Shown one piece after another: positions 1,612 through 17,978 of a stretch of 24,825 bases of DNA. The DNA lies in NCBI GenBank assembly GCA_964478955.1, contig CAYZNE010000002.1:1-24825 (forward strand), given 5' to 3'. The translations under genes and the position numbers were made by a program. Below the pieces are notes generated by a model that saw nothing but the letters and a program-made list of their open reading frames with translations, did no database searches and was not told the origin of the DNA. The DNA is from an uncultured Methanosarcinales archaeon (GTDB lineage: Archaea; Nanobdellota; Nanobdellia; Woesearchaeales; CAYZNE01). Within the stretch, counting starts at the first letter, position 1; each line of letters opens with the position of its first letter.

Positions 1612-1628
1612 CACTCCAAAATGAATTC
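1612..1628 (-). repeat. Degenerate direct copy of the tRNA-Glu(CUC) 3' end
   Basis: Minus strand GAATTCATTTTGGAGTG versus tRNA end GAATCCCGTTTGGAGCA (12/17 identical), directly after hairpin copy 1. Confidence 0.55.
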
Positions 1629-1654
1629 GTACTCAACAGTAAACTGTTGGCACC
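1629..1654 (-). repeat. Bulged-A hairpin element, copy 1
   Basis: Minus strand GGTGC CAACAG TTTA CTGTTG A GTAC. Confidence 0.8.
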
Positions 1655-1689
1655 AAAGGAACTTTGTTTGAATCCCAAAGGATTGTTAA

Positions 1690-1764
1690 TGCTCCAAACG
1701 GGATTCGAACCCGTGTCCTCGGCGCGAGAGGCCGAGATGATTGGCCGGACTACACTATTGGAGC
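1690..1764 (-). tRNA. tRNA-Glu(CUC)
   Basis: Acceptor GCTCCAA/TTGGAGC, anticodon arm TCGGC-CTCTCGC-GCCGA, T-arm ACGGG-TTCGAAT-CCCGT, discriminator A; CCA not encoded. Confidence 0.96.
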
Positions 1765-1772
1765 AAATAGAA

Positions 1773-4256
1773 TTAATCATTATTAACAACTTTTGCAATA
1801 CTTGTTACTTTATCGCCAGCCTTAAGTTTCATAATTCTTAGACCCTGGGTGTTTCTTCCTATAACTGAGATTTGTGAAGCTTGTGTTCTTATTACTTGCC
1901 CTTGTTTGCTCATAATGATTATTTCATTCTGATCATAAACTTGTCTTATTTCTACAACTTTTCCATTTCTTGGACTGCAGATAATATTTCTAACTCCTTT
2001 TCCACCTCTTCTTATGAGTCTATATTCAGGAATACTTGTTCTTTTACCATAACCGTTTTCAGTAATTGTTAGGATTGTAGCATCATCTTTTGCAACAACT
2101 GCACCTATAACTTTATCTTTAACTAATGTTATTGCTCTTACTCCTCTGGCACTTCTTCCTATTGGTCGAGCATCTTTTTCATTAAATCTTACTGCTTGAC
2201 CATTCTTTGTTGCAATCATTATATTTTCTGAGCCTGATGTTTTCAGAACTTTAACTAATTCATCTTCTTGATCTAAACTGATTGCAATAATTCCTCCATT
2301 TCTTGGTCGGCTATAGAGTTTTAATTCTGTTTTTTTAATTATTCCTTTTTCTGTGACCATTGCAAGGTATTCTGATTTACTAAAATCTTTTATTGGGATA
2401 ACTGCACTAATAGAGTCTTCTTGTTTTAGGTTAAGTAAATTTATTATTGCTTTACCTTTGCTTTGTCGTGAAGCTTCAGGTATTTTATATACTTTTAGCC
2501 AATGAACTTTTCCTTTATTTGTGAAACAGAGTAAGTAAGATTTTGTATTTGCAATAAATATATCTTCAATAAAATCTTCTTCTTTTGTTTGCATACCAAT
2601 AACTCCCTTTCCTCCTCTATTTTGGATTTTGTAGTTTTTTATTGGCATTCTTTTTATGTAACCTGAATTTGTTATCATTATTACTTGATCTTCTTCTTCA
2701 ATCATATCTTCAATGTCAACTTCTTCTTCCTGATCTGAAATCTCTGTTCTTCTTTCATCACTGAACTTTTCTATTAATTCTTTTGATTCTTTCTTTATTA
2801 TTTTCTTAATTTCGTTTTCATCAGATAAAATTATTTTTAGTTTTTCTATTAGTGACAGTGCATCTTTTAGATCTGTTTTTATTTTGTTTTGTTCTAAACC
2901 AGTTAGTTTTTGTAATTTTAAATCTAGAATTGCCTGTGCTTGTTTTTCACTTAAATCAAAATTTCTAATTAATCCTTCTCGTGCATCCTTTGCGGTTTTT
3001 GATGATTTAATTAATTTTACAACTGCATCAAGATTGTCTAGTGCAATAACTAGACCTTCTAATAAATGCGCTTTTTCTTCTGCTTTCCTTAGATCAAAAG
3101 TAGTTCTTTTTATTATTACTTCTTTTCTATGATCTATAAACACAGCTAGTGCATCTAGTAATGTTAGAGTTACAGGTTTTTTATCTAGTATTGCAAGAAG
3201 ATTAATACCAAAACTAACTTGTAATCTTGAATGTTTTAGAAGCTGTGCTTCAACAACTTCGTATGATGCATCTCTTTTTAATTCAATAACTACTCTGATA
3301 CCTGTTCTATCAGTTTCATCTCTTATGTCTGAGATGCCTTCAATGACTTTATCTTTAACCCCATTTGCAATTTGGGTTATCATTAATGCTTTGTTAACCA
3401 TGTAAGGTAGTTCTGTGATTATGATTGCGTTCTTATTTCTTACTGTTTCTTGATGGCATTTTCCTTTAATTCTAATAATCCCTCTGCCTTTTGCATAGGC
3501 TGATTGTATACCTGTTCTGCCAATTATTATTCCTCCAGTTGGAAAATCTGGCCCAGGAATGTATTCCATGACTTCAGCAACTGTAAGATCTGGATTATCG
3601 ATTTTTGCAATTATTGCAGAGCAAACTTCTTTTACATTATGGGGTGGAATATTTGTTGCCATTCCAACTGCAATTCCTGAGGAACCATTAACTAATAAGT
3701 TGGGTAGTTTTGCTGGAAGAACTTCAGGTTCTGTTAATGAACCATCAAAGTTCTCTACAAAAGAAACAGTTTCTTTGTTAATATCTTGAAGCAACTCTTC
3801 TGTAATTTTCATCATCTTTGCTTCAGTATATCTCATTGCTGCAGGGCTATCCCCATCTATACTTCCAAAGTTTCCTTGACCATTAACTAAAGGATATCTA
3901 AGAGAAAACTCTTGTGCCATTCTAACTAATGCATCATATACTGATTGATCTCCATGTGGATGATATTTACCAAGAACGTCTCCAACAATTCTTGCAGACT
4001 TTCTAAATTGCTTGTTGTACTGTAATCCAAGGTCATTCATTGCAAAAAGAATTCTTCTATGAACTGGTTTTAACCCATCTTTTGCATTGGGAAGTGCTCT
4101 GCCAATTATAACAGACATAGCATAATCTAAGTATGAAGTTTTCATTTCCTCATCAATTATTTGAGGAATTATTTTGTCATTAGTTTCTGCTAGATTTTCA
4201 TCATTTCTAACATTATTTTCTTCAATATTCTTAGGCATTTTATCGTCGTGCACCAT
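1773..4256 (-). CDS. gyrA: DNA gyrase subunit A
   Basis: [33 protein letters not shown], catalytic AAMRYTE, GyrA-box QNRGGKG, C-terminal pinwheel repeats (RNGG, RSARG, RRGGKG, RNTQG). Confidence 0.97.
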
Positions 4257-4337
4257 ACTAAAATAAGAAATAGTTTAGCTTTATAAGTGTTGTGTTTTTT
4301 ATGCTATTTTTACCCTTAAAAAGCCATTAAATTTACT

Positions 4338-7262
4338 CTATTCAATGGTAATATTAACAGGAGTTGGTCCTGCAGATAATACATTTCCATCCCAATTAAT
4401 TTTCCACACTATTATTCTTTGATTTGATGTTTGTGATCTAAGATCTGAGAACTTTTCAAAGTGGGTGGTATATTTACCATCAAAATAAAATAGTCTTGTG
4501 AAAATTGAAGTGCTTAATTCTTTAGAACTAACTACTGCACTATTGCCAATATTAAATATTGAAATATCAACACCACTTGCTGAAGAGTCATAAGTTTTTA
4601 ATTCGTTATTGATTTCAGTTGTAAATGATCTTATACTTACCTTATCTTCACCTACTTTTGTTGTTCCTTTATATATTCCTAATACCCCTTCGCCTTCTTC
4701 TGTAAGTTTATTAAATATATATTTTTCTATAACTAAATCTGCACCATTTTGTGAACCAATTTTTACATTAATATTACAATTAACTGTGTTATTGATGTTT
4801 AAACATGATCCTGTGCCAATATATCCTGGCCAACCACTTATCCAAGTGTTAGCTTCTTTTTCAGTTTGAAGCATATTTATTTCATCAAATAGAACTTCTA
4901 TTTCAGAATCTTCATAATTATGTATTTTTGCAAGATTTGTGAATGAAGAAAAGTCTTTACTTTTTCCATTATAATAAAGATCTGCTTTTTTGAAATCCCA
5001 TAATCCAAAGTGTGCCCAAACTCCTGATTTAGAAACCATATCCCCACTAGTTATATAGTATGCCTCTGGAGGATTGCAGTGTGTTTTTTGTAATATACTA
5101 TTTACTGAACTAGTTTGAAAACCTTTACTCAAGAGAATTTGTTTAGCATCTTCTTTGTTCTCTTGCACGATCTCGTCAAGAATAGCTACGCTTAGTGCAG
5201 GATTATTTAATTCATTATTTAATAATTCAAATGCGTCATTTGATCCACAATGAAGCATTCTAAGTATTCCAACTGTTAAATCTTCATTGCTTGTTACAAG
5301 TGATTTTCCAACCCAATGGGCCATTGGCGTATTCTGAGTTACACCATCAAATGTTACTGCTCTATCTGCAACAGCTTTAAACCAGTGGCCGAAATCCCAC
5401 CAAGAAGTGATTATCGCCTTCTGATCTGATTCTGCTCTTATTTTTGTTAAAGACTCATGCCATGCATCATTCATTTGTGGGATTTCATTTAGTGAAACTA
5501 TGTGTGCAGCACCAAAATAATTTACAAAAATTATTACAACTAAAATAAGAACAATAATTTTTGTTGCAATCTTTGGTATGTCAAATAGAACATGCAACCT
5601 TTTACTTAATTTAATAAATAGTATTCCTATTGTTAACCCAATCATTAATGAGAATGGATTAATCCCCAATAAAACAAATCTTATTCCTCTTACAGAGGCA
5701 AAAATAGTTCCAGCAAAAAGAGCACCTAATAGTGCAGGAAGTAATATACTTGCTCTCTCTTTTCTCTCTTGAAATAAATTAACAAGTATTCCTATTGCAA
5801 CTGTTAGTAAAATTAAGACTATGTAAAAGTTAGGACTTATTTTTGCAATAATAGATTTGCTTGTTAAGATTAAGTATAATATCGCTGATCCAATTAAATA
5901 AGTCCATGTTCTTTTATTGTATACTTTTATTAGTGATAATGGAATTGCGAGTAATGCAAGAAATATCATTGTTTGTCCTAGACTGCTTGAAGCTAGGGCC
6001 TTTGTTATTCCTGTTAGACTCTGTGTGTTTAACTCTGCAACTGTTGTATAAACATTAGGCCACAATGTCGAATGAACTGCATTCTGTAATCCTGCAGATC
6101 GCGTTACAGATGTTAGTGTAGAAATTACTACTTTGTAACTCATAAATATAATTGTTACTAATAAATAAACTGCAAATATTATTAGATTTGATCTAATAAT
6201 TCTTGAATGAAACAATTTGATATGTTTTTTCTTTGATTCTTTAGAATCTATTAGTATTTTTATTATTTGGTAAATTATCATTCCAATTAATACTGCAATT
6301 AAGATATCGAATGAGAAGTACCATCCTCCTCCCCAAGTTTTATAGAATATCCATGTTGCAACTCCTGCTAGCGCTGCAAATAAACCTTTTTTCTGATAGC
6401 TTCTTGCAGAAAACGCTTCTATAATAAACCAAAAGATGAACAAGGGCATTGTTATACCATATGCATCTGTATCTACAAATCCTGCAGGAGTTCTACCTAA
6501 TAAGTATGGGTGTATTCCTACAAGCATTGCTGCAACAAATCCACCTACAATTCCTGCATATTTTTTAATAATAAAAAATGCAGGTATAAGCCCTAATAAT
6601 ATGATTAGTGCAGGAATAAGATATATTGAGTTTAATAAGGGTGTTCCTGGTTTGAAAAAGTTAGAGATTTTATATGTCCAGAAAAGAATTAATGTGTGTC
6701 CATCAAGTGTCATTTCTCTTCCTTTTGGCGCAACTTCATGTGTGTTCCAGCATACGTCTTCTTTTATCTCATCGCAAACTGTTCCATCTTCAATTAAGTT
6801 TGTTGCTTTTAGAGAATAATAATAAGGATCAATTGCAAGCAGGTAAGTTTGATTATTTTCATCTTGAAAATCTTCCCTGTATTGTGCTGCCAAACTTTTT
6901 TGAGATGATTCTATATTATTTTTTTCTGTTTGATAAACTTCTGCAAATCGTTTATTTATGAGATCTTCTTTATTTACTTCTGGAAGGTTAGGATATTCTG
7001 AGTCTACTTGCGTTTTTATTTGTGATTTATAATAACTAATAACTGAGCTTTCTGCCCAGTCTTCTGTTTTAGGTAGTGTTTCAGTGTATGTTCTAAAGTA
7101 AATTGAACAAATCATTGTAACTAAAATTAAGAGTATTATAAGGGTAGTTTTGTTGAATATTTTTTTGTTAGAAAAAAAGTCTTTGGCCTTAATACCAAAT
7201 TCTTTTATATTAAGATTTGTTTCTATAGTATCTTCAGTATCATGTTTTTTGTCTTCATCCAT
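4338..7262 (-). CDS. aglB: Oligosaccharyltransferase AglB (STT3 family)
   Basis: DPYY, DTD, TVAEL, many TM helices, signature SWWDFGHW, downstream DMVSK (DK motif). Confidence 0.95.
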   Translation of the reverse strand: MDEDKKHDTEDTIETNLNIKEFGIKAKDFFSNKKIFNKTTLIILLILVTMICSIYFRTYTETLPKTEDWAESSVISYYKSQIKTQVDSEYPNLPEVNKEDLINKRFAEVYQTEKNNIESSQKSLAAQYREDFQDENNQTYLLAIDPYYYSLKATNLIEDGTVCDEIKEDVCWNTHEVAPKGREMTLDGHTLILFWTYKISNFFKPGTPLLNSIYLIPALIILLGLIPAFFIIKKYAGIVGGFVAAMLVGIHPYLLGRTPAGFVDTDAYGITMPLFIFWFIIEAFSARSYQKKGLFAALAGVATWIFYKTWGGGWYFSFDILIAVLIGMIIYQIIKILIDSKESKKKHIKLFHSRIIRSNLIIFAVYLLVTIIFMSYKVVISTLTSVTRSAGLQNAVHSTLWPNVYTTVAELNTQSLTGITKALASSSLGQTMIFLALLAIPLSLIKVYNKRTWTYLIGSAILYLILTSKSIIAKISPNFYIVLILLTVAIGILVNLFQERKERASILLPALLGALFAGTIFASVRGIRFVLLGINPFSLMIGLTIGILFIKLSKRLHVLFDIPKIATKIIVLILVVIIFVNYFGAAHIVSLNEIPQMNDAWHESLTKIRAESDQKAIITSWWDFGHWFKAVADRAVTFDGVTQNTPMAHWVGKSLVTSNEDLTVGILRMLHCGSNDAFELLNNELNNPALSVAILDEIVQENKEDAKQILLSKGFQTSSVNSILQKTHCNPPEAYYITSGDMVSKSGVWAHFGLWDFKKADLYYNGKSKDFSSFTNLAKIHNYEDSEIEVLFDEINMLQTEKEANTWISGWPGYIGTGSCLNINNTVNCNINVKIGSQNGADLVIEKYIFNKLTEEGEGVLGIYKGTTKVGEDKVSIRSFTTEINNELKTYDSSASGVDISIFNIGNSAVVSSKELSTSIFTRLFYFDGKYTTHFEKFSDLRSQTSNQRIIVWKINWDGNVLSAGPTPVNITIE

Positions 7263-7550
7263 TAAAATACCCCTTAGACCTGTTTATTAGTATTATTAGT
7301 ATTTGAAAATACTCTATTTTTTTATAAATGTTTCATTTATGTAGGTTGTATTTTAGTTGTTTTATAATAGGTATTTAAATGGATTTTCTTCAAATTCTGA
7401 TTTGTAGTCACTCTAAAATAGAAATATTTAAATATGATACTGAATACTTAGGTTTAAATAGTTAAATTTAGTAAATTTTCTGGAAAAAAGGGGCGGGATA
7501 GTAGTAAATAAATCATACTTATGATATATTTAACACTTGAGGGGATTCAA

Positions 7551-8768
7551 ATGAAAAAGATAAATAAAATAGGAATTTTAGCATTTTTGATAATTGCAAC
7601 TTTACTTCTTTCTGCTTGCAGTTTGACTTACGTACCTGATAATAAATCTGCATTTGATATGGATTCAGGATTGCTTGGTGATAGAAGTGAAATAATGTTT
7701 GATGATGATTCTGTGTTGGTTGATGATGATCGAGAATTAATAAATTATGCAGATGAAGAAATAAATGAATCAGATGTTGCTATGACTGTTTCTGCAGTTG
7801 AGGGAGATCTTATTGATCTTCAACCAAAAGCAGTTGATCCTGATGATGATTTAATTGAATATACTTTTACTAATCCATTTAATGAAGTTGGTTTATGGCA
7901 AACACAAGATGGAGATATTGGAAGGTATCTTATTACTATAAGTGCAACAGATGGTGATCTAGTAATAAAAGAATATGTTCTAGTAATTGTGTATCCTAGA
8001 AACAAAGCCCCTGTTGTTGAATGTCAAGAAGAAATGGTTGTTTTTGAAACTGATACAGTAAGTTTAAATTGTAATTTCTATGATTTAGAAAATGATATCT
8101 TTTCATTATCTTACTCTGGTTGGATGACTTCTGATGAATATACTACAACTTATGATGATGCAGGTGAATACACTGTTATTGTATCTGCAGAAGATAGTGA
8201 GAATAATACTATTCAAAAAGAAGTAAAAATTATTGTGAAAAATAAAAACAGACTTCCTATCTTAAGTGGTGTTGAAGATATCTATGCAATGGAAACAGAG
8301 ATTATTGTTCTAAGTGTAGGTGCTGTGGATGCAGATAGTGATAATTTTATTATGAGTTTTGGAGCACCATTTGATGAAGATGGTGTTTGGGTTACTGCAG
8401 ATGGAGATAATGGTGATTATGTATCTTATGTTCAAGTAACTGATGGAACAGATACTGTAACAGAAAGTTTTAATATTTATGTTGAACACATAAATACAAT
8501 ACCCCATCTTGCACCAATTGAAGACATTGAAGTAACTGAAGGAGATGTTGTTCTAATAGAAACTACTATTAGTGATGCTGAAGATGATGAACTAACTGTA
8601 ACATTTTCTGGTTGGATGACTTCTGAAGTATATGCAACTACTTATGATGATGCTGGAGAACACTATGTTAAAGTCACTGTTAGTGATGGTCAACTGGAGA
8701 TTTCACAAAATGTGAAAGTAACTGTTAGTAATTTAAATAGACCTCCTGTGTTTATTGTTCCAGGATAA
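7551..8768 (+). CDS. Secreted acidic lipoprotein with tandem Ig/cadherin-like domains
   Basis: Likely start ATG 7551 after GAGGGG. Basic N-terminus, hydrophobic core, lipobox-like LLLSAC. Repeated DxDxD turns and NxxP domain starts; internal duplication SGWMTSDEYTTTYDDAGEY / SGWMTSEVYATTYDDAGEH. Confidence 0.8.
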   Translation: MKKINKIGILAFLIIATLLLSACSLTYVPDNKSAFDMDSGLLGDRSEIMFDDDSVLVDDDRELINYADEEINESDVAMTVSAVEGDLIDLQPKAVDPDDDLIEYTFTNPFNEVGLWQTQDGDIGRYLITISATDGDLVIKEYVLVIVYPRNKAPVVECQEEMVVFETDTVSLNCNFYDLENDIFSLSYSGWMTSDEYTTTYDDAGEYTVIVSAEDSENNTIQKEVKIIVKNKNRLPILSGVEDIYAMETEIIVLSVGAVDADSDNFIMSFGAPFDEDGVWVTADGDNGDYVSYVQVTDGTDTVTESFNIYVEHINTIPHLAPIEDIEVTEGDVVLIETTISDAEDDELTVTFSGWMTSEVYATTYDDAGEHYVKVTVSDGQLEISQNVKVTVSNLNRPPVFIVPG

Positions 8769-8779
8769 TTCCGGTTAAC

Positions 8780-8808
8780 GGTGCCAATAACTAATAGTTA
8801 TTGAGTAT
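8780..8808 (+). repeat. Bulged-A hairpin element, copy 2 (followed by T tract; may also act as terminator)
   Basis: GGTGC CAATAACTA A TAGTTATTG A GTAT, starting 12 nt after the 8768 stop. Confidence 0.8.
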
Positions 8809-8826
8809 TTTTTTATTTGATTAAAC

Positions 8827-8854
8827 ATGCCAATAACTAAATGTTATTGAGCAT
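8827..8854 (+). repeat. Bulged-A hairpin element, copy 3
   Basis: ATGC CAATAAC TAAAT GTTATTG A GCAT, followed by a T tract. Confidence 0.8.
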
Positions 8855-8879
8855 TTTTTTAAAACATAAAGGTGAAAAC

Positions 8880-9275
8880 ATGAACAGAAAAACAAGTTTG
8901 TTAATAATATTATTATTAATAATAATACTTTTAGGAATACTTAATTTGATGTGGCTTACAGATATAAAAGATTTTGATTCTGAGTTTAATAGAGAATCTT
9001 CTGTTCCTAAGTTATCAAATCAAGTTGTAAGAACAGTTTATATGACTCAACATCAAGATAGACTTTACCCTGAAACAATTACTGCAAATAAAGGTGAGTT
9101 TTTAATACTTAGTTTTGCAGATAAGAATGCAACAACTTTAGAAATACCAGGTTATGATTTTACTCAGACAGTTAAACTTTATAATTTTGAACTATTTTTA
9201 GCTAATAAAGGAACATTTGAGATATATTGTCATAATTGTCCTGATAAATCTCCTGCAGTCTTGATTGTTGAATAA
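8880..9275 (+). CDS. Membrane-anchored cupredoxin-like domain protein
   Basis: Start ATG 8880 after GGTGA (the track start at 8841 lies inside hairpin copy 3). One N-terminal TM helix; PETITANKGE and GTFEIYCHNC resemble Cupredoxin_1 strands and the C-terminal Cys/His loop. Confidence 0.65.
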   Translation: MNRKTSLLIILLLIIILLGILNLMWLTDIKDFDSEFNRESSVPKLSNQVVRTVYMTQHQDRLYPETITANKGEFLILSFADKNATTLEIPGYDFTQTVKLYNFELFLANKGTFEIYCHNCPDKSPAVLIVE

Positions 9276-9286
9276 CCTGGTTAAAC

Positions 9287-9319
9287 GGTGCCAATAAAGT
9301 TTTTATCTTTATTGAGCAT
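9287..9319 (+). repeat. Bulged-A hairpin element, copy 4
   Basis: GGTGC CAATAAAG TTTTTAT CTTTATTG A GCAT, starting 12 nt after the 9275 stop. Confidence 0.8.
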
Positions 9320-9333
9320 TATTTTTTTATTTT

Positions 9334-9389
9334 TTGCAAGAAAGTTTACGAATACTTTAACTTTTAAGTTAAAGATGCGTTTCTTGCAA
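9334..9389. repeat. Nested inverted repeat / long imperfect hairpin
   Basis: TTGCAAGAAA...TTTCTTGCAA (10 bp) enclosing CTTTAACT-TTTA-AGTTAAAG (8 bp). Confidence 0.65.
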
Positions 9390-9435
9390 GTTCAAAAGTT
9401 TGGTTTTCAAATTTTTGTTATTTTCTTCTTTTCTT

Positions 9436-9452
9436 AAAGAAATCTTTATAAA
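9436..9452 (+). promoter_or_regulatory. BRE/TATA promoter of tRNA-Ile(UAU)
   Basis: AAAGAAATC followed by TTTATAAA ending 28 nt upstream of the tRNA. Confidence 0.6.
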
Positions 9453-9479
9453 TAGTTTATTTCTTCTTAACTTATAGAA

Positions 9480-9589
9480 GAGTCCGTAGCTTAGTCCGGT
9501 GGAGCGCTGGTCTTATATGGCCAAATCTCGTTTTAGAGGTTTTGTTCTAAGCTAGCCAGTGGTCGGGGGTTCAAATCCCCTCGGACTCA
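9480..9589 (+). tRNA. tRNA-Ile(UAU) with 36-nt intron (9518-9553) at canonical 37/38
   Basis: Acceptor GAGTCCG/CGGACTC; anticodon stem CTGGT/GCCAG; spliced loop CT-TAT-AA. BHB motif: central helix CTTA/TAAG with two 3-nt bulges (TAT, CTA). Body almost identical to tRNA-Ile(GAU) at 11949. Confidence 0.92.
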
Positions 9590-9717
9590 TTTTTTTTAAT
9601 GAGTTTGTTTTTGGGGTTTGAACTTGTTCCTTTGGTGCAGGAAATCTTTATTTTCCGCACAAATCCCCTCGGACTCATTTTTTTTAATGAGTTTGTTTTT
9701 GGGGTTTGAACTTGTTC
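9572..9717 (+). repeat. Perfect 58-bp direct repeat x2 (9572-9629, 9660-9717) starting in the tRNA T-loop
   Basis: CAAATCCCCTCGGACTCA-T8-AATGAGTTTGTTTTTGGGGTTTGAACTTGTTC occurs twice, period 88. Confidence 0.93.
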
Positions 9718-9734
9718 TGTAGAGTTTTGCTCGA

Positions 9735-9793
9735 GGCACCAAAAATTTTTGATTTTTGAGGGCTTATGGCACCAACAGCAAGCTGTTGAGTAC
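9735..9793 (+). repeat. Bulged-A hairpin element, copies 5 and 6 in tandem
   Basis: GGCAC CAAAAAT TTTTG ATTTTTG A GGGC (9735-9763) and GGCAC CAACAG CAAG CTGTTG A GTAC (9768-9793). Confidence 0.75.
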
Positions 9794-9795
9794 AT

Positions 9796-9811
9796 AATCC
9801 CCTCGGACTCA
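9796..9811 (+). repeat. Third copy of the tRNA-Ile 3' end (att-like)
   Basis: AATCCCCTCGGACTCA, identical to 9574-9589. Confidence 0.9.
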
Positions 9812-9890
9812 CTTCCTTTTCTCAGGCATTTGAAAATAAGATATTTAATCAGAAAATATTATATAGTAAGACTTCTCAGTTAAGTAGTAT

Positions 9891-10688
9891 ATGAAGAATA
9901 AAGAGATATTCAATTGGCTAGTAAGAGAACATGTTGGTAGAGATTGGATGAATGTAAGACCCTATGTTAGAGAAGGAGTTTTAGGCTCAATGAAAGTTGT
10001 CCCTGGAAATACAGAAAATCCTTATTATGGGGGAATTTTAATTTTTGCAAAAGGAAAAAGGTTTGCAGCCAATCTTAAAAAGATGAATATTGTACTTGTA
10101 GGGAAAATGAATGTTTCTTATAATATTTCTACATTTGATAGATTTAGCAGATACTGCAAGAAGTTTCGTGTTGAAGACGGTGCAACCGTTATAGATAAAA
10201 ACAATGCTTTTGCATACTATATTTCTGTGTTTAATAATAATCCTCAGATATTCTGGACATTTAAAGAAAGGTGGGATTTTGCATTTAAAGGAATATACAA
10301 AATTTACAAGATTGGAAAGATGCTTCCATCTGATTTCAAAGACCATAAAGGACTAAATAAAGTTGGCGAATCAATGGATTTGATAGGAAATAAAACTTAT
10401 GTTGCCATTGTTCTCCCTCAAGCTTATCCAAGGGTTCATACATTTCAAATAAAAAGAACTGCATACACTCCTCTTGGAATGGGTAAAGTAACTCATTTCG
10501 ATAGTGAAGGATTGTTAGAAGAATTTTATCTTGTGTACATGCCTAGTTACAAAGGAGAATTTCTAGACGCAAAACACAAAGTTGTTGGCATCTACAGGTA
10601 TTATGATAGAAGTAGAGGAGTAAAAAAGATATTCCGAAGAGAATTGATTATTGGGTGCAGTGATTTGAAACAGATTGGGATGAATTAA
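9891..10688 (+). CDS. Hypothetical protein, possible divergent DAC (DisA_N-like) fold
   Basis: GGILIF strand, EDGATVID (DGA motif), LIGNKTYVAI where DAC enzymes have LGxRHxAA. Overlaps tatD by 4 bp, convergent. Confidence 0.5.
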   Translation: MKNKEIFNWLVREHVGRDWMNVRPYVREGVLGSMKVVPGNTENPYYGGILIFAKGKRFAANLKKMNIVLVGKMNVSYNISTFDRFSRYCKKFRVEDGATVIDKNNAFAYYISVFNNNPQIFWTFKERWDFAFKGIYKIYKIGKMLPSDFKDHKGLNKVGESMDLIGNKTYVAIVLPQAYPRVHTFQIKRTAYTPLGMGKVTHFDSEGLLEEFYLVYMPSYKGEFLDAKHKVVGIYRYYDRSRGVKKIFRRELIIGCSDLKQIGMN

Positions 10689-11461
10689 AGAAACAATCTT
10701 TGGTAATTGAGATAAATGTTATTTGCAACTTCTTCTTCATCTAATTGCTTTAGCTCTGCAATCTTTTTAATGACAACAATTACATTGCTAGAATCATTTA
10801 TCTGACCTTTTGATGGTGCAAGAAATGGTGCATCTGTTTCTGTAAATAATTTGTTTAAGGGTGTGCTTTTTATTATGCTATGAAAATGCAATGCCCTTTC
10901 AACATTAGTTGGAATAGAGAAATACCATCCATTGTTAATTATCCTTTGAATAAATTTTTTCTTTCCTGAAAAGCAGTGCATAATAACTTTCTTAGCTTTC
11001 ATTTCTTCTAATGCAATTATTGTGTCTTCTTCTGCCTTCCTTGAATGCACAATAATTGGAATATCTTTATCAATACTTATCTGTATTAATTTTTTAAAAT
11101 ATTTTATCATTCTTTGCTTTGTTTCATCTGAGAAAAATACTTTATGCTCATGGCCTTTTCCTTGAAAATAATCAAGACCAACTTCACCTATTGCAATACA
11201 CTTATTATTTCTAATAAACTCAAGTTCTTTTTCTAATTGCTCATCAGTATACTCTGCAATATGTGTAGGATAAAATCCTAATGCAGGTTTAACAATATTA
11301 TACTTTTTAGCTAATTCTAAAACATTCCTATTGCTTTCAGGCTCTGTTCCTTGGGTTATGATTACTTTAACACCAGCATTCCTGCATTTAGAAATAACTT
11401 CATCAATTCTCTCAATTAAGCCCTTATAGCTTAAATGGGCATGCACATCAATTAATTCCAT
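10685..11461 (-). CDS. tatD: TatD-family nuclease
   Basis: IDVHAH, GFYP, IGEVGLD, IVHSR, MHCF, TETDAP. Confidence 0.95.
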   Translation of the reverse strand: MELIDVHAHLSYKGLIERIDEVISKCRNAGVKVIITQGTEPESNRNVLELAKKYNIVKPALGFYPTHIAEYTDEQLEKELEFIRNNKCIAIGEVGLDYFQGKGHEHKVFFSDETKQRMIKYFKKLIQISIDKDIPIIVHSRKAEEDTIIALEEMKAKKVIMHCFSGKKKFIQRIINNGWYFSIPTNVERALHFHSIIKSTPLNKLFTETDAPFLAPSKGQINDSSNVIVVIKKIAELKQLDEEEVANNIYLNYQRLFL

Positions 11462-11548
11462 AATAGTGCATTAAATAGAATGTGTTTATTAAGTTTGTGT
11501 AGAATATAAGAATCAAAATAAGAATAAATTAAAATAATAGAATTAGGA

Positions 11549-11650
11549 TTATTTCTTTAATCTTTTACGTTTTTCTTTCTTCATTCTTTTACGTTGCCAC
11601 TTCCAACGCATTTGACCTTTCTTTTTCCAACGTCTTGAACTTCTCTTCAA
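11549..11650 (-). CDS. rpl41e: Ribosomal protein eL41 / eS32 (archaeal), 33 aa, not in the ORF track
   Basis: TTG start after GGTGA; translation MKRSSRRWKKKGQMRWKWQRKRMKKEKRKRLKK matches the archaeal L41e pattern as I recall it. Confidence 0.88.
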   Translation of the reverse strand: MKRSSRRWKKKGQMRWKWQRKRMKKEKRKRLKK

Positions 11651-11718
11651 TTTATCACCAAATTATCATATATTTTTCTTCTTGCTCTCCTAACGGAAAC
11701 CTCATATAATTTTAAATA

Positions 11719-11733
11719 TGCTCCAAATGGGAT
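11719..11733 (-). repeat. Direct copy of the tRNA-Glu 3' end
   Basis: Minus strand ATCCCATTTGGAGCA versus ATCCCGTTCGGAGCA (Glu-UUC) and ATCCCGTTTGGAGCA (Glu-CUC). Confidence 0.8.
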
Positions 11734-11752
11734 CCGTAGCAATTTCTTGCGA

Positions 11753-11782
11753 GGTGTCCAATAACCGTAGGTTATTGAGTAT
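11753..11782 (+). repeat. Bulged-A hairpin element, copy 7 (antisense to the adjacent tRNA)
   Basis: GGTGTC CAATAACC GTA GGTTATTG A GTAT. Confidence 0.75.
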
Positions 11783-11783
11783 C

Positions 11784-11802
11784 TTCGAATCTCGTTGGAA
11801 TA
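11784..11802 (+). repeat. Inverted degenerate copy of the tRNA-Glu(UUC) 3' end
   Basis: Plus strand TTCGAATCTCGTT-GGAATA versus tRNA TTCGAATCCCGTTCGGAGCA. Confidence 0.7.
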
Positions 11803-11806
11803 TAAA

Positions 11807-11881
11807 TGCTCCGAACGGGATTCGAACCCGTGTCCTCGGATCGAAAATCCGAGATGATTGACCGGACTACACCATCGGAGC
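11807..11881 (-). tRNA. tRNA-Glu(UUC)
   Basis: Acceptor GCTCCGA/TCGGAGC, anticodon arm TCGGA-TTTTCGA-TCCGA, T-loop TTCGAAT; CCA not encoded. Confidence 0.96.
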
Positions 11882-11948
11882 AAACTCTCGTAACTAATTG
11901 GATTAAACTTCTATTTAAAAGCTTTTTGAAATTAGTAGAATTATAGAA

Positions 11949-12022
11949 TGAGTCCGAGGGGATTTGAACCCCCGACCACTCGATTATCAGTCGAGCACTC
12001 CACCGGACTAAGCTACGGACTC
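11949..12022 (-). tRNA. tRNA-Ile(GAU)
   Basis: Acceptor GAGTCCG/CGGACTC, anticodon arm CTCGA-CTGATAA-TCGAG, T-loop TTCAAAT. Confidence 0.96.
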
Positions 12023-12023
12023 A

Positions 12024-12147: not shown

Positions 12148-14211
12148 TTATTCAAAAACACTACTTATAATTTCTTCAGCATTAAACTTCTTTAAATCTT
12201 TATATTCTTGCCCTGTTGTTATGAATAATATTGGTTTTTCAGTAACATGACTTATTGAGATTGCTGCACCACCTTTCTCATCAATGTCTGCTTTTGTTAG
12301 AATGATTCCATCAATACCAACTGATTTATTGAATTCTTTTGCCTGTTCAACACAATCATTACCAGTAATACTTTCCCCAATAAAGATTTTCATATTTGGA
12401 TTTACTACTCTAATAACTTTTTCAAGCTCTTGCATTAAATTAGAGTTGCTATGTAATCTTCCGGCAGTATCTATCAAAACCACATCTACTGATTTTGATT
12501 TTGCATGTTCTATTGTATCATATGCGACTGCAGCAGGGTCTGCACCATAGTCATGCTTGATTAACTTAGTATTAAGATTGTTTGTGTGTTCTTCTATTTG
12601 TTGGATTGCTGCAGCTCTAAATGTGTCTGATGCTGCAACCACGCATGTTAAGTTATTGTCTTGGAAATATTTTATTAATTTTCCAATTGTTGTTGTTTTC
12701 CCTGAGCCATTAACCCCAAGCATTAATATTTTGTAAGGCTTTTCTGAAGTTTTTATTTTTTCAATTAAGTCTATTGGTTCATAACCAAACAGAGACTCTA
12801 TTGTTTGTCTTAAATTGTTCAGGATTATTTCATCTATAGATCTTCTTGTTACCTTTGTGTTCTCTAGTTCTTCTTTAAGATTGAATTTTATTTTTTCAAT
12901 AACTTCTACTGCAACATTATTTTCTAGAAGTGCAACTTCAAGGTCCCAGAATAATTCATCAAATTTCTCATCTGTAATATTTAATTTTATTATCTTTTCT
13001 GACAGTTTTTTGAAGATTCCCTTTTTCTTTTGTGTTGGATCAACAAGTTTTTCTTTTTTATCTTCCTTTGCTTCTTTAACATGAACTTCTTCTTGTATGT
13101 GGGGTTTTTCAAGAGCAGGAAAGTCTTCTTTTTTTAGTAAATCTTTTTTCTTTTCAATGTGTTTTTCTACTTTCTGAGTTATTTTGTATTCCCAACCTGG
13201 TTGCCATGCTTTTCTTAATCTCCAATCTTCTGCTAGTGCTTGTGTCCAAGTTTTATTATTTAGAAGAACTTCTATTGCTAGTTGAGAATATCTGTGTGCG
13301 GCAATAGCTATGTGTTTTCCTTTGTATTTTTTATATAAGTCATTAAGAAATTTTCTTATTCTTGCAGTTACCTCGTTGTAACTTTCGCCTTTTGGATAAT
13401 TTTCATATATAGGATTATGATCTTTTTTGAATTCATTAAGTTTTGACTTATGTTGACCATTTAGTTTTCCATAATCACATTCTCTTAATCTTTTATCAAC
13501 AATTGTTTCTTTATCTGGCCAAGTTATATTTGCAGAATCAATTGCTCTTTTTAGATCTGAAGTGAATATTTTATCAAAATCATATTTTGTTTGATTAATT
13601 AATTCTTCAGATTGAGTTATTCCTAGTGCAGATAGTTCTGTTGAGTTTTGCCCCGTACATACACCTGCTTCATTATCTTTTGTTGTTCCGTGAACAAAAT
13701 AAGTTATATGCACTTCGTTTTCTGGAACTTGTTTTTTAATTTTAGTTGTTTCTTTAATTTCTTCAATTATGGGTTTTGGAGCTTCTTCAATAACTTCTTC
13801 CTTTGACTTTTCCTTTGGCTCTTCAATAACTGGTTCTTCTTTAATCTCTTCAACCTTTTCCTCTACTTCTGGTTCGGGAACAGGAACTTCTTCAACAATT
13901 TTTTTTATTATTTCCTTTGGCTCTTCAATCACGGGTTTTTCTTCAACCTTCTCTTCTTTAACTGCATCTTCAGCGTTAATCTTTGCTTGCTCTTCTGCAA
14001 TCTCTTCCTCAATAGATTTAATTTCTTCTGGTTGTTCCTCTTTTTTCTTTTTAGAAAATACTTTTTTGAAAAACCCCTTTTTCTCTTTTTCCAATTCTTG
14101 TTTTTCTTCTTCACTAATTTGATCTTCAGAAATAGTTTTAGCGTCTTCTACTATTTCCTCAGCTATTTTTTCTGAGGTTTCTTTTATTTTCTTTTTTAGG
14201 AAGCCAAACAT
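12148..14211 (-). CDS. ftsY: SRP receptor FtsY with acidic N-terminal region containing an inserted histidine-phosphatase domain
   Basis: C-terminal NG GTPase: GVNGSGKTT, DTFRAAA, DTAGR, TKAD, GGA. Residues ~167-344 carry FVHGTT, TSDLKRA, RLRECDYG, PKGES, IAAH. Confidence 0.93.
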   Translation of the reverse strand: MFGFLKKKIKETSEKIAEEIVEDAKTISEDQISEEEKQELEKEKKGFFKKVFSKKKKEEQPEEIKSIEEEIAEEQAKINAEDAVKEEKVEEKPVIEEPKEIIKKIVEEVPVPEPEVEEKVEEIKEEPVIEEPKEKSKEEVIEEAPKPIIEEIKETTKIKKQVPENEVHITYFVHGTTKDNEAGVCTGQNSTELSALGITQSEELINQTKYDFDKIFTSDLKRAIDSANITWPDKETIVDKRLRECDYGKLNGQHKSKLNEFKKDHNPIYENYPKGESYNEVTARIRKFLNDLYKKYKGKHIAIAAHRYSQLAIEVLLNNKTWTQALAEDWRLRKAWQPGWEYKITQKVEKHIEKKKDLLKKEDFPALEKPHIQEEVHVKEAKEDKKEKLVDPTQKKKGIFKKLSEKIIKLNITDEKFDELFWDLEVALLENNVAVEVIEKIKFNLKEELENTKVTRRSIDEIILNNLRQTIESLFGYEPIDLIEKIKTSEKPYKILMLGVNGSGKTTTIGKLIKYFQDNNLTCVVAASDTFRAAAIQQIEEHTNNLNTKLIKHDYGADPAAVAYDTIEHAKSKSVDVVLIDTAGRLHSNSNLMQELEKVIRVVNPNMKIFIGESITGNDCVEQAKEFNKSVGIDGIILTKADIDEKGGAAISISHVTEKPILFITTGQEYKDLKKFNAEEIISSVFE

Positions 14212-17210: not shown

Positions 17211-17339
17211 TTTTTGTTTTCACCTTGAATTAATGTTTAAATTAAACACTTTTTTTAAGATAGTATGAGTCTAAGATTTTCTTTTGTTTGAAATAAATAC
17301 CCAATAATTAAATTTATTGGTACCGATAAAAAATCGGAA

Positions 17340-17978
17340 TTAATAAATTCCTGTGTTGATCTTTCCAGATTCAACAAATTTAAATCCATCTTTATTTAGG
17401 ATTGCAATATCATAACCATTGCCAGACATTGTGTCTCTTTTCAAAGAAGAGTTTATTGCTTTTTTTACTAATACAATTCCTTCTTTTTGAGTCATTCCTT
17501 CTTTAAATTCATTTTCTAGAACTCCAATTGCGTAAACACTTCCTGATCCTGAAGACACAAAAGTTTTTACTTTTGTAACTGACCCATCAGGATATAAATC
17601 ATATAATAAAAGTTTACTGTCTTGTCCTGCAAGTAAGAAATGTGCAATTCCCTGTATCATAGAAGGAGTTCTTATAGAATTATATAACATTCCTGCAAGC
17701 ATGTTTGCTGCTTCTTTAACAGTTGTATTTCTGTTTGTTTGATTTTCTTTTAGAGCTAATTGTGCCCTAATAACTTTAATTAATAGTTGAGCTTCGCTAA
17801 CAGTTCCTGCCATTGTTAGTGCAAATCTGTCATTGATTTTTATAACTTTTTTAATATCTCCACTTGTAACCATATAGCCTGCTGTAACTCTTTTATCTGC
17901 AGCAAGAATTATGCAATCTTTACACACAACTCCCATAGTTGTTGTTCCAGTACTTAATGTATTTTCATCCTTATTCAT
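17340..17978 (-). CDS. psmB: 20S proteasome beta subunit
   Basis: 11-aa propeptide then G/TTT catalytic Thr, AADKRVT, AGTVSEAQ, SGSGS, KRDTMSG. Confidence 0.96.
   Translation of the reverse strand: MNKDENTLSTGTTTMGVVCKDCIILAADKRVTAGYMVTSGDIKKVIKINDRFALTMAGTVSEAQLLIKVIRAQLALKENQTNRNTTVKEAANMLAGMLYNSIRTPSMIQGIAHFLLAGQDSKLLLYDLYPDGSVTKVKTFVSSGSGSVYAIGVLENEFKEGMTQKEGIVLVKKAINSSLKRDTMSGNGYDIAILNKDGFKFVESGKINTGIY

Follow-up and report, generated by a model that had tools for sequence, protein, structure and literature searches.

The DNA analysed here (the window) spans 24,825 nucleotides of contig CAYZNE010000002.1 from the uncultured archaeal assembly GCA_964478955.1, and it carries copies of a short hairpin repeat that we call element E. 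The window has a G+C content of 31% and archaeal gene content, with the archaeal RNase P RNA, five tRNA genes (one with an intron) and protein genes including GyrA, the oligosaccharyl transferase STT3/AglB and FtsY; gene calls on contigs with the same genes added prefoldin, eIF6, a beta-CASP/KH nuclease and a proteasome subunit. Composition and gene content suggest a DPANN-like host. Its counterpart among JGI contigs is Ga0208904_1000666 (26.7 kb), several other samples contain near-identical contigs, and the nearest genome in the species-representative set is represented by the metagenome-assembled contig CAYONI010000001.1 (245 kb; GyrA 91% identical). The hairpins are probably copies of a non-autonomous, selfish double-hairpin DNA element that multiplies in a low-GC archaeal clade.

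A hairpin descriptor (C-CAA, a stem of at least 6 pairs, TTG, an unpaired A, G) matched the window at exactly the seven hairpins reported in an initial annotation, compared with a mean of 0.175 and a maximum of 2 in 200 Markov shuffles and ~0.5 matches per 100 kb in unrelated genomes (1.3 Mb). Seven is an undercount, as an additional copy at 17297-17339(-) and a bulge-less variant at 9627-9660 raise the number to at least nine. We fetched 100 related metagenome loci (labels L007, L011 etc.; 592 kb) with the pattern of the commonest E subtype and built a covariance model from 59 family members. The model gave 123 matches at E values ≤1e-3 (these E values being rough) in the related contigs, bearing out the earlier proposal of a dispersed family resembling repetitive extragenic palindromes (REPs). 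The additional copy corresponds to the model match 17294-17342(-) (31.6 bits, E value 2e-5) and abuts the TAA (17340-17342) of the proteasome subunit gene. Viral contigs yielded zero matches to the E pattern. In an Rfam 15 search of the window, only tRNAs and the archaeal RNase P RNA reached the gathering score and E matched no family; a permissive Rfam search over 8740-9830 returned chance-level matches only. The stems of E are too G-C-poor for the rule of a bacterial-type terminator scan, and a literature search found no description of the element.

Element E is 42–50 nt long. The hairpin of the initial annotation stands as one part of it, and the conserved unit reaches ~15 nt further 5' to include TTCC and a small hairpin (hp1) that abuts the main hairpin (hp2), giving the layout TTCC, hp1, hp2 with GG/TGC-C-AAWAA..stem..TTWTT-G-A-GCAT at the border. 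hp1 is closed by CC/GG and comprises 3–4 pairs, the next pairs covarying (G-C, A-T), and a longer hp1 is typical of a tRNA-linked subfamily. In hp2, TGC-C-AA(T/A)AA...TT(A/T)TT-G-A-GCA-T, seven basal pairs are constant, and pairs 7–8 vary freely with pairing kept (C-G, A-T, T-A, G-C). Paired cells amount to 98.8% among the 59 family members. The covariation score is 0.212 compared to 0.061 in shuffles, none of 500 shuffles reaching the observed value; stem pairs 7 and 8 are paired in 91% and 87% of cases versus 42–58% after shuffling, and stem pairing collapses when the partner register is slid. Covariation is weaker in hp1 than in hp2. Conservation of structure with covarying stems, as claimed from the window, is thus confirmed for the family. 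The variable stem contains 17 G·T against a single A·C, indicating selection of the structure on one strand; in 55 of 83 copies, folding is slightly better for the sense strand.

The bulged A, which had been called invariant, is only the predominant state. The copy at 17297 has a bulged G, the orthologue of the copy at 8780 in the related species L011 and L093 has a bulged T, and the orthologue of the copy at 8826 in the same two is a perfect palindrome from which the bulge is absent. The bulge persists in the orthologue of the copy at 9287 (L011, L093), where C-G has changed to T-A and to T·G. A constant stem base (TGC-C-AA / TT-G-A-GCA) under a freely covarying top is the pattern that would be expected if a structure-specific protein recognized E.

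Comparison of related loci points to movement. Three pairs of filled and empty sites were found, i.e., L140 against L137 and L103 (flanks 96–100% identical), L138 against L097, and L097 against L157 and L138, with E (TTCC...GAGCAT) lying within a T tract or immediately behind TAA. Neither these three pairs nor the FtsY site described below show an evident target-site duplication. The empty sites (TAA/AGTTTT; GTTT/ATTTTT) are without TTC, so TTCC belongs to the element. E copies that are identical or differ by one mismatch stand between unrelated flanks, e.g., in rpL22 and FtsY or in FtsY and rpS3Ae. At tRNA-Glu(CUC), the window has a sense copy of one subtype and L011 an antisense copy of another, and L012 has no copy; E is also absent from tRNA-Ile(UAU) in L093. 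The L012 locus (6115-6763) comes from a more distant relative (GyrA 76% identical), where the tRNA-Glu(CUC) trailer has no cassette and the downstream gene order is unlike that of the window. These filled and empty sites, the near-identical copies with unrelated flanks, and the in-frame copies in conserved genes show E behaving as DNA that is copied to new places.

Most copies lie behind genes. Mapping of orientation, as the initial annotation had proposed, showed that intergenic copies with a recognizable neighbor follow a codirectional stop codon in 58 cases (median distance ~9 nt) and adjoin a divergent start in 14; these context statistics come from a simple open reading frame (ORF) caller, and three "sense in-ORF" cases may be spurious ORFs. 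The flanks of intergenic copies contain 55–64% T on the hairpin strand on both sides. Runs of five or more T occur to the left of 34 and to the right of 49 of 69 intergenic copies, compared with runs of five or more A at one and none, respectively. The hairpin-sense strand is the T-rich strand in all contexts. The statement that all copies are intergenic is correct for the window and fails for the family. Three insertion contexts and the tRNA 3'-end duplications had been overlooked.

Within long ORFs, 13 copies are antisense. Seven in-frame copies are read through in five host proteins, namely rpL22, rpS3Ae, aIF2-gamma, FtsY (one or two copies) and an MBF1-like helix-turn-helix protein, each copy encoding (E)MLNNQ(K/R)IIGTNKLE (MLNNQKIIGTNKLE). 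The E-encoded insert always falls in Lys/Glu-rich linkers or extensions outside Pfam domains, and a protein database search with a 54-aa concatenate of the peptide returned nothing at E values ≤10. Because the in-ORF copies all carry one hp1 variant (CCAACTTGTTGG), they form a subfamily. The FtsY genes of the window, L011 and L143 lack the 14 codons (CCT AAA/AAA GAA versus CCA GAA, 42 nt, AAA GAA); in a DNA alignment of L180 and L164 FtsY, the boundaries of the first insert are blurred by low-complexity indels. Additionally, the window FtsY (12148-14211, -) has a His_Phos_1 histidine-phosphatase domain inserted in its N-terminal acidic region (residues 174-307), whereas the orthologues in L011, L164 and L180 (490–525 aa) are without this domain.

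The third context is the 3' end of tRNA genes. In a sample of 44 distinct tRNA loci, which is enriched for E, 18 loci have the last 16 nt of the tRNA repeated 55–100 nt downstream with E in between. The host tRNAs are those for Glu, Ile, Leu, Val, Phe, Ser, Asp and Lys. Read in tRNA sense, these cassettes consist of the intact tRNA, a short trailer, an inverted copy of the tRNA 3' part, E in either orientation, and a good direct copy of the 3' end with its trailer. The inverted copy is best kept in a core, GGGATTYGAAC, that is reverse-complementary to positions 63 to 53 or 54. In eight independent cases with sense E the junctions are exact: ...GAAC, a turn of 2–3 nt, GTTC (53-56), E, and N57-A58-A59-T60-C61.... 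The sequence after E is specific to the host tRNA (AAATCCCC for TTCAAAT loops, GAATCCC for TTCGAAT, GAGTCCGGG for the Val tRNA), and the window copies at 1629(-) and in the tRNA-Ile array obey the same rule. E thus interrupts, at T-loop position 56/57, a 3' tRNA fragment starting from G53, and the E-less mirror image of this fragment comes before it. With antisense E, the hairpin strand reads the reverse complement of positions 76-59, E, and then positions 54 onward. In the tRNA-Glu(CUC) trailer of the window, the inverted arm at 1662-1676 pairs with GTTC (1659-1662) as the snap-back GAAC-nnn-GTTC, an architecture shared with the other tRNA cassettes.

Cassette units of 70–90 nt are tandemly amplified in L011, L172, L159 and the tRNA-Ile array of the window, where a 58-nt repeat is 100% identical between its copies. 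The variant E0 in this array forms, together with the 58-nt repeat that follows, an 88-nt unit that is absent from strain L007. The copy at 11733-11782 has a tandemly amplified orthologue in L011, in which a compensatory change replaced C-G by T-A. In L011, ~100 masked N (2461-2560) lie within an array of ~90-nt cassettes after tRNA-Glu(UUC), which has at least three units.

Known RNA structures do not account for the cassettes. A tRNA-like minihelix RNA was considered and rejected, because mismatches between the arms show no G·U excess (G·U 11, A·C 11). A K-turn, a bulge-helix-bulge intron and a split tRNA were also discarded, given a single-base bulge, no tandem G·A pairs and no 3-4-3 bulge-helix-bulge; split-tRNA halves do not fit, as the fragments begin in the T-loop. 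We found no precedent for the series of intact gene, inverted copy, T-loop hairpin and direct copy. We suggest that E may insert into the tRNA T-loop, aided by TTC microhomology with its own 5' end, and that hairpin-induced fold-back and template switching could recreate an intact tRNA upstream, only such products surviving. Fold-back inversions through single-strand hairpins are documented in yeast (PMC7467729). Neither an E-free triplication nor an E-disrupted tRNA was seen among the sampled loci. The features of the window are compiled in Table 1.

Table 1. Copies of element E and associated tRNA-derived sequences in the window. A slash within a layout separates hp1 from hp2.
Feature	Positions	Strand	Layout and remarks
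Descriptor matches	1628-1654(-), 8780-8809, 8826-8855, 9287-9320, 9735-9764, 9768-9794, 11754-11783		
Degenerate direct copy of tRNA-Glu 3' end from T-loop position 57	1612-1628	-	GAATTCATTTTGGAGTG; compared with the tRNA
E copy	1629-1661	-	TTCC-TTT-GG/TGC-CAACAG-TTTA-CTGTTG-A-GTAC; in tRNA-Glu(CUC) trailer, tRNA sense
3-nt turn and inverted copy of host T-loop/T-stem	1662-1676	-	GGGATTCAAAC; reading of the sequence
Host tRNA-Glu(CUC) gene	1689-1765	-	
E copy	8769-8808	+	One base past TAA of the 415-aa PKD-domain gene, then T7 run; 55.8 bits
Tandem second E copy	8812-8857	+	Degenerate hp1; hairpin 8826-8854; T7 run after
E copy	9274-9319	+	Abuts stop of the 131/144-aa gene, T runs after; descriptor and covariance model
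Host tRNA-Ile(UAU) gene	9480-9589	+	Contains intron
58-nt repeat, copy 1	9572-9629	+	tRNA-Ile 3' end from C56, T8, degenerate inverted 3'-end copy (TGAGTTTG..GGGGTTTGAAC), turn, GTTC
Variant E0	9627-9660	+	TTCC-TTT-GG/TGC-AGGAAA..TTTTCC-GCA; without CAA/TTG, A·C mismatch replaces bulge
58-nt repeat, copy 2	9660-9717	+	Identical to copy 1
E copy, tRNA-linked long-hp1 type	9715-9763	+	TTCTGTAG-AGTTTTGCT-CGAGG/CAC-CAAAAAT..ATTTTTG-A-GGGC
E hairpin without hp1	9768-9793	+	GGCAC-CAACAG-CAAG-CTGTTG-A-GTAC
Distal direct copy of tRNA-Ile 3' end	9794-9811	+	ATAATCCCCTCGGACTCA
Direct repeat of tRNA-Glu(UUC) 3' end	11718-11733	-	ATCCCATTTGGAGCAT (minus-strand reading)
E copy, long-hp1 type	11733-11782	+	ATCCGTAG-CAATTTCTTG-CGAGG/TGT-C-CAATAACC..GGTTATTG-A-GTAT; antisense to adjoining tRNA
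Degenerate tRNA-Glu T-loop-to-3'-end copy, inverted relative to tRNA gene	11783-11802	+	CTTCGAATCTCGTTGGAATA
Host tRNA-Glu(UUC) gene	11806-11882	-	
Additional E copy, bulge G	17297-17339	-	TTCC-GAT-TTTTT-ATC-GG/TAC-CAATAA..TTATTG-G-GTAT

Several neighboring features of the window deserve mention. The second copy of the tandem behind the PKD-domain gene overlaps the mis-called start of the next ORF: the 144-aa ORF at 8841-9275(+), in our calls and in public ones, begins inside the hairpin at 8826-8854. A likelier start is the ATG at 8880 after GGTGA; the protein would then have 131 aa and a hydrophobic segment at its N-terminus, and its database homologues are 108 aa long and match 82% of it. 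The secreted PKD-domain protein gene (415 aa) contains internal direct repeats at 7875-8679(+) with a 492-nt period and 72–77% identity, i.e., duplicated domain modules. In the tRNA-Ile array, the tRNA acceptor 3' strand and its degenerate inverted copy (GAGTTTG) form a 10-pair hairpin with the T8 run in its loop at 9582-9607 and 9670-9695(+), which the terminator scan detected. The exons of tRNA-Ile(UAU) are nearly identical to tRNA-Ile(GAU) (11948-12023, -), 2.4 kb apart, resulting in complementary arms of 38 nt (89%) and 34 nt (100%); the intron-containing gene was found by Rfam and missed by the default mode of ARAGORN. Beside tRNA-Glu(UUC), an unlisted 33-codon ORF with a TTG start, (L)KRSSRRWKKKGQMRWKWQRKRMKKEKRKRLKK (11549-11650, -), resembles ribosomal protein L41e. 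A TATA-like box for it stands directly after the distal tRNA-Glu 3'-end repeat, and an L41e-like gene also follows tRNA-Glu(UUC) in L164 and L115.

The reading that we favor is a mobile DNA element. E would move as, or into, single-stranded DNA in a strand-specific manner, as suggested by the T-rich flanks on the hairpin strand and by G·T far above A·C. A structure-specific DNA enzyme encoded elsewhere in the genome would most likely mobilize it in trans, reading the conserved stem base with its extrahelical purine as well as TTCC/hp1. The invariance of the stem base, bulge and TTCC/hp1 beneath a diverging top points to such protein recognition. An enzyme of the HUH/Y1 type is our best guess, and a tentative one; within the mobile-element reading, a dedicated enzyme (HUH-like or other) takes roughly half of the weight and enzyme-free template switching a substantial share. 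Copies would persist where they are harmless, i.e., behind a terminator T run, in flexible protein linkers, or at rescued tRNA genes. Those after stop codons may secondarily serve as 3'-end hairpins, and a domesticated role of this kind is compatible with all data.

When 694 ORFs from the related loci were screened for HUH motifs and clustered all against all, housekeeping families and one IS200-type TnpA were the only results. This IS200/IS605-type Y1 transposase (L158, 2842-3270, -; Pfam Y1_Tnp, E value 4e-22) lies ~700 nt from an E copy. Three other routes of insertion were set aside. TTC as an IS608-style target, an idea prompted by the GTTC/ junction in the T-loop and the GAA..GAA junction in FtsY, was rejected, as the empty sites contain no TTC; it amounts to microhomology at most. 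Cas1/casposase-type integration, with its long target duplication, would formally suit the tRNA arrays but not the terminator and in-ORF insertions, at which no duplication is seen. A classical DDE-type miniature inverted-repeat transposable element would not have ends such as TTCC... and ...GAGCAT, which are not inverted repeats, and no duplication is seen at filled and empty sites.

Several observations weigh against a purely selfish, enzyme-mobilized element. No transposase, RAYT, integrase or other candidate gene was found adjoining any E copy, including the tnpA, RAYT or intI genes that the initial annotation had envisaged between copies, and the IS200-like element of L158 has GC-rich end hairpins unrelated to E and no E flanking it. 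The proposed recognition site for a recombinase or HUH nuclease is supported in so far as the strand asymmetry fits a single-strand process of the HUH-enzyme kind; no cognate enzyme was found. Hairpins are preserved by compensatory changes in orthologous copies of three species, and a hairpin kept across species could mean host-level selection for function, not pure selfishness. The locus set consists of genome fragments ascertained through one E subtype, and the fetch pattern fixes GGTG..CCAATAA..TTATTGAGYRT, so that conservation there is inflated. Still, copies in these loci that were picked up solely with the looser descriptor or the model are consistent with the pattern-fixed positions. 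Finally, the fold-back rescue proposed for the tRNA cassettes is drawn from their anatomy alone.

The main rival, which we regard as unlikely, is that E is a host-functional RNA module, a 3' untranslated region (UTR) hairpin at or near an oligo-T terminator that stabilizes or defines 3' ends or binds a protein, with dispersal being secondary. The strong bias toward sense copies shortly behind stop codons speaks for such a role, as do the T runs downstream of 49 of the 69 intergenic copies, the G·U-compatible asymmetry and slightly better folding of the transcribed strand, and the compensatory changes in orthologues. However, T runs also precede about half of these copies (34 of 69), so transcription should often stop before reaching E. 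Archaeal transcription termination needs the T run alone and no hairpin. The 13 antisense copies sit in housekeeping ORFs where such a role is impossible, which likewise leaves the RNA-binding-protein site of the initial annotation without an explanation for them. Moreover, tRNA-linked copies occur in both orientations, many window genes have no E, and orthologous copies lose the bulge and the conserved base yet stay hairpins.

Enzyme-free spread appears improbable as the whole explanation. Here, the hairpin would stall replication and the nascent strand would switch template between oligo-T or TTC microhomologies, so that E with its two T tracts would be copied as a module into further T tracts, the tRNA cassettes being by-products. 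The same-strand T-richness on both sides of E, the lack of target duplication, the TTC microhomology at T-loop junctions, and the GAA...GAA around the FtsY insert are all in line with this process, and no transposase was found. Template switching or fold-back classically leaves signatures such as the snap-back GAAC-nn(n)-GTTC and the direct-inverted-direct triplication seen for tRNA 3' ends (fold-back inversions through single-strand hairpins, PMC7467729), and hairpin repeats with no known enzyme exist in small AT-rich organelle genomes (PMC2800124, PMC4478555). Against it, the insertion boundaries (TTCC...GAGCAT) are precise at independent sites, and the stem base, bulge and TTCC are nearly invariant while the upper stem and loop diverge, indicating a sequence-specific recognition that a purely physical mechanism does not need.

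A more specific proposal, for which we see similarly low odds, is that DPANN-type archaea have a DNA insertion system specific for hairpin and strand, with E as its substrate and TΨC-loop position 56/57 as the site to which it homes, and that every insertion goes together with fold-back duplication at the 3' end of the tRNA. If so, partly palindromic repeats and hairpin units would build arrays beside the tRNA as a "leader", array growth would formally resemble leader-proximal CRISPR or integron growth, and the copies at terminators and in ORFs would stem from insertion that was off-target or specific to a subfamily. Site-specific recombination sites or scars (integron attC-like, or att remnants of plasmids or viruses integrated at tRNA genes) are largely refuted by context and very improbable: a folded hairpin with an extrahelical base, arrays beside tRNA genes with direct 3'-end repeats as from att sites, and an extra tRNA-proximal unit in some strains resemble them, but the units of 70–90 nt are cargo-free, no integrase occurs in the window and none was noticed in the loci, most copies lie after stop codons or inside ORFs and not at tRNA genes, the ends TTCC / GAGCAT mismatch the integron core sites RYYYAAC / GTTRRRY, and integrase att sites would not be expected to give rise to an inverted copy of the tRNA end.

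If E is the selfish element that we favor, very small, gene-dense archaeal genomes still carry an active selfish DNA family. It would rewrite 3' UTRs, lengthen ribosomal proteins, translation factors and FtsY by a 14-residue peptide, and, at up to 40% of the sampled tRNA genes, remodel the neighboring sequence. For annotation, E would account for mis-called ORF starts (8841 instead of 8880), pseudo-tRNA 3' fragments, assembly breaks and masked repeats. The element would represent either the minimal substrate of an undiscovered archaeal single-stranded DNA enzyme or a case of enzyme-free template-switch spread, either of which would be instructive, and the tRNA layout offers a concrete, testable model for the rescue of lethal insertions in essential RNA genes.

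Among known systems, E appears to be a variant of the REP, Rickettsia palindromic element (RPE) and mitochondrial hairpin kind that fails defining features of each. RPEs and the coding palindromes of Methanocaldococcus jannaschii are dispersed, have no known transposase, and are found both intergenically and in frame (Ogata 2000; Suyama 2005; PMC2229807, PMC10969869). E resembles RPEs in being palindromic, in lying both between genes and in frame in conserved genes, in adding a short peptide to tolerant regions, and in its contact with RNA genes. In contrast to RPEs (100–150 nt), E is three times smaller (42–50 nt), folds as a double hairpin in which one base is extrahelical, lacks terminal inverted repeats and is bound strictly to the T-rich strand, and its link to RNA genes is the tRNA T-loop 56/57 with duplicated 3' ends. 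REP/REPIN sequences are short imperfect hairpins with a 5' GTAG tetranucleotide, commonly arranged in inverted doublets and mobilized by RAYT (HUH Y1) (PMC3116915). Like them, E has a conserved 5' tetranucleotide, a bulged base, many copies mostly behind genes, and conservation of structure over sequence. Unlike them, it is archaeal and AT-rich, has TTCC and a second small hairpin in place of GTAG, and occurs also in ORFs; neighboring copies form direct tandems (8769/8812; 9715/9768; L175, L115), save for mixed orientation in some tRNA arrays, and no RAYT gene was found among the 694 ORFs from genome fragments.

The "peel and paste" IS200/IS605 elements share with E a hairpin with an extrahelical base, strand-specific insertion, and the absence of terminal inverted repeats and target duplication. 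However, E is far smaller than a pair of left and right ends, has no fixed target tetra- or pentanucleotide flanking its left end, and is not homologous to the ends of the sole TnpA element seen (L158). Integron attC sites differ in their core sites RYYYAAC ... GTTRRRY, which E lacks; moreover, the genes flanking E are housekeeping genes and the window has no intI. SPRITE of Streptococcus pneumoniae is a terminator-like dispersed repeat (PMC10969869). It shares with most intergenic E copies a hairpin and T run at gene 3' ends, but SPRITE mimics a bacterial Rho-independent terminator, whereas E also lies antisense inside genes. Mitochondrial double-hairpin elements, the repetitive hairpin-forming elements (RHE) of sponges and yeast GC clusters occupy small AT-rich genomes with no identified enzyme (PMC2800124, PMC4478555). 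As tiny (double-)hairpin repeats that are linked to rearrangements and present also in coding regions, they are like E, but they are organellar and usually GC-rich islands in AT-rich DNA. To our knowledge, no mitochondrial hairpin repeat has been reported with the tRNA T-loop and 3'-end duplication architecture that accompanies element E.

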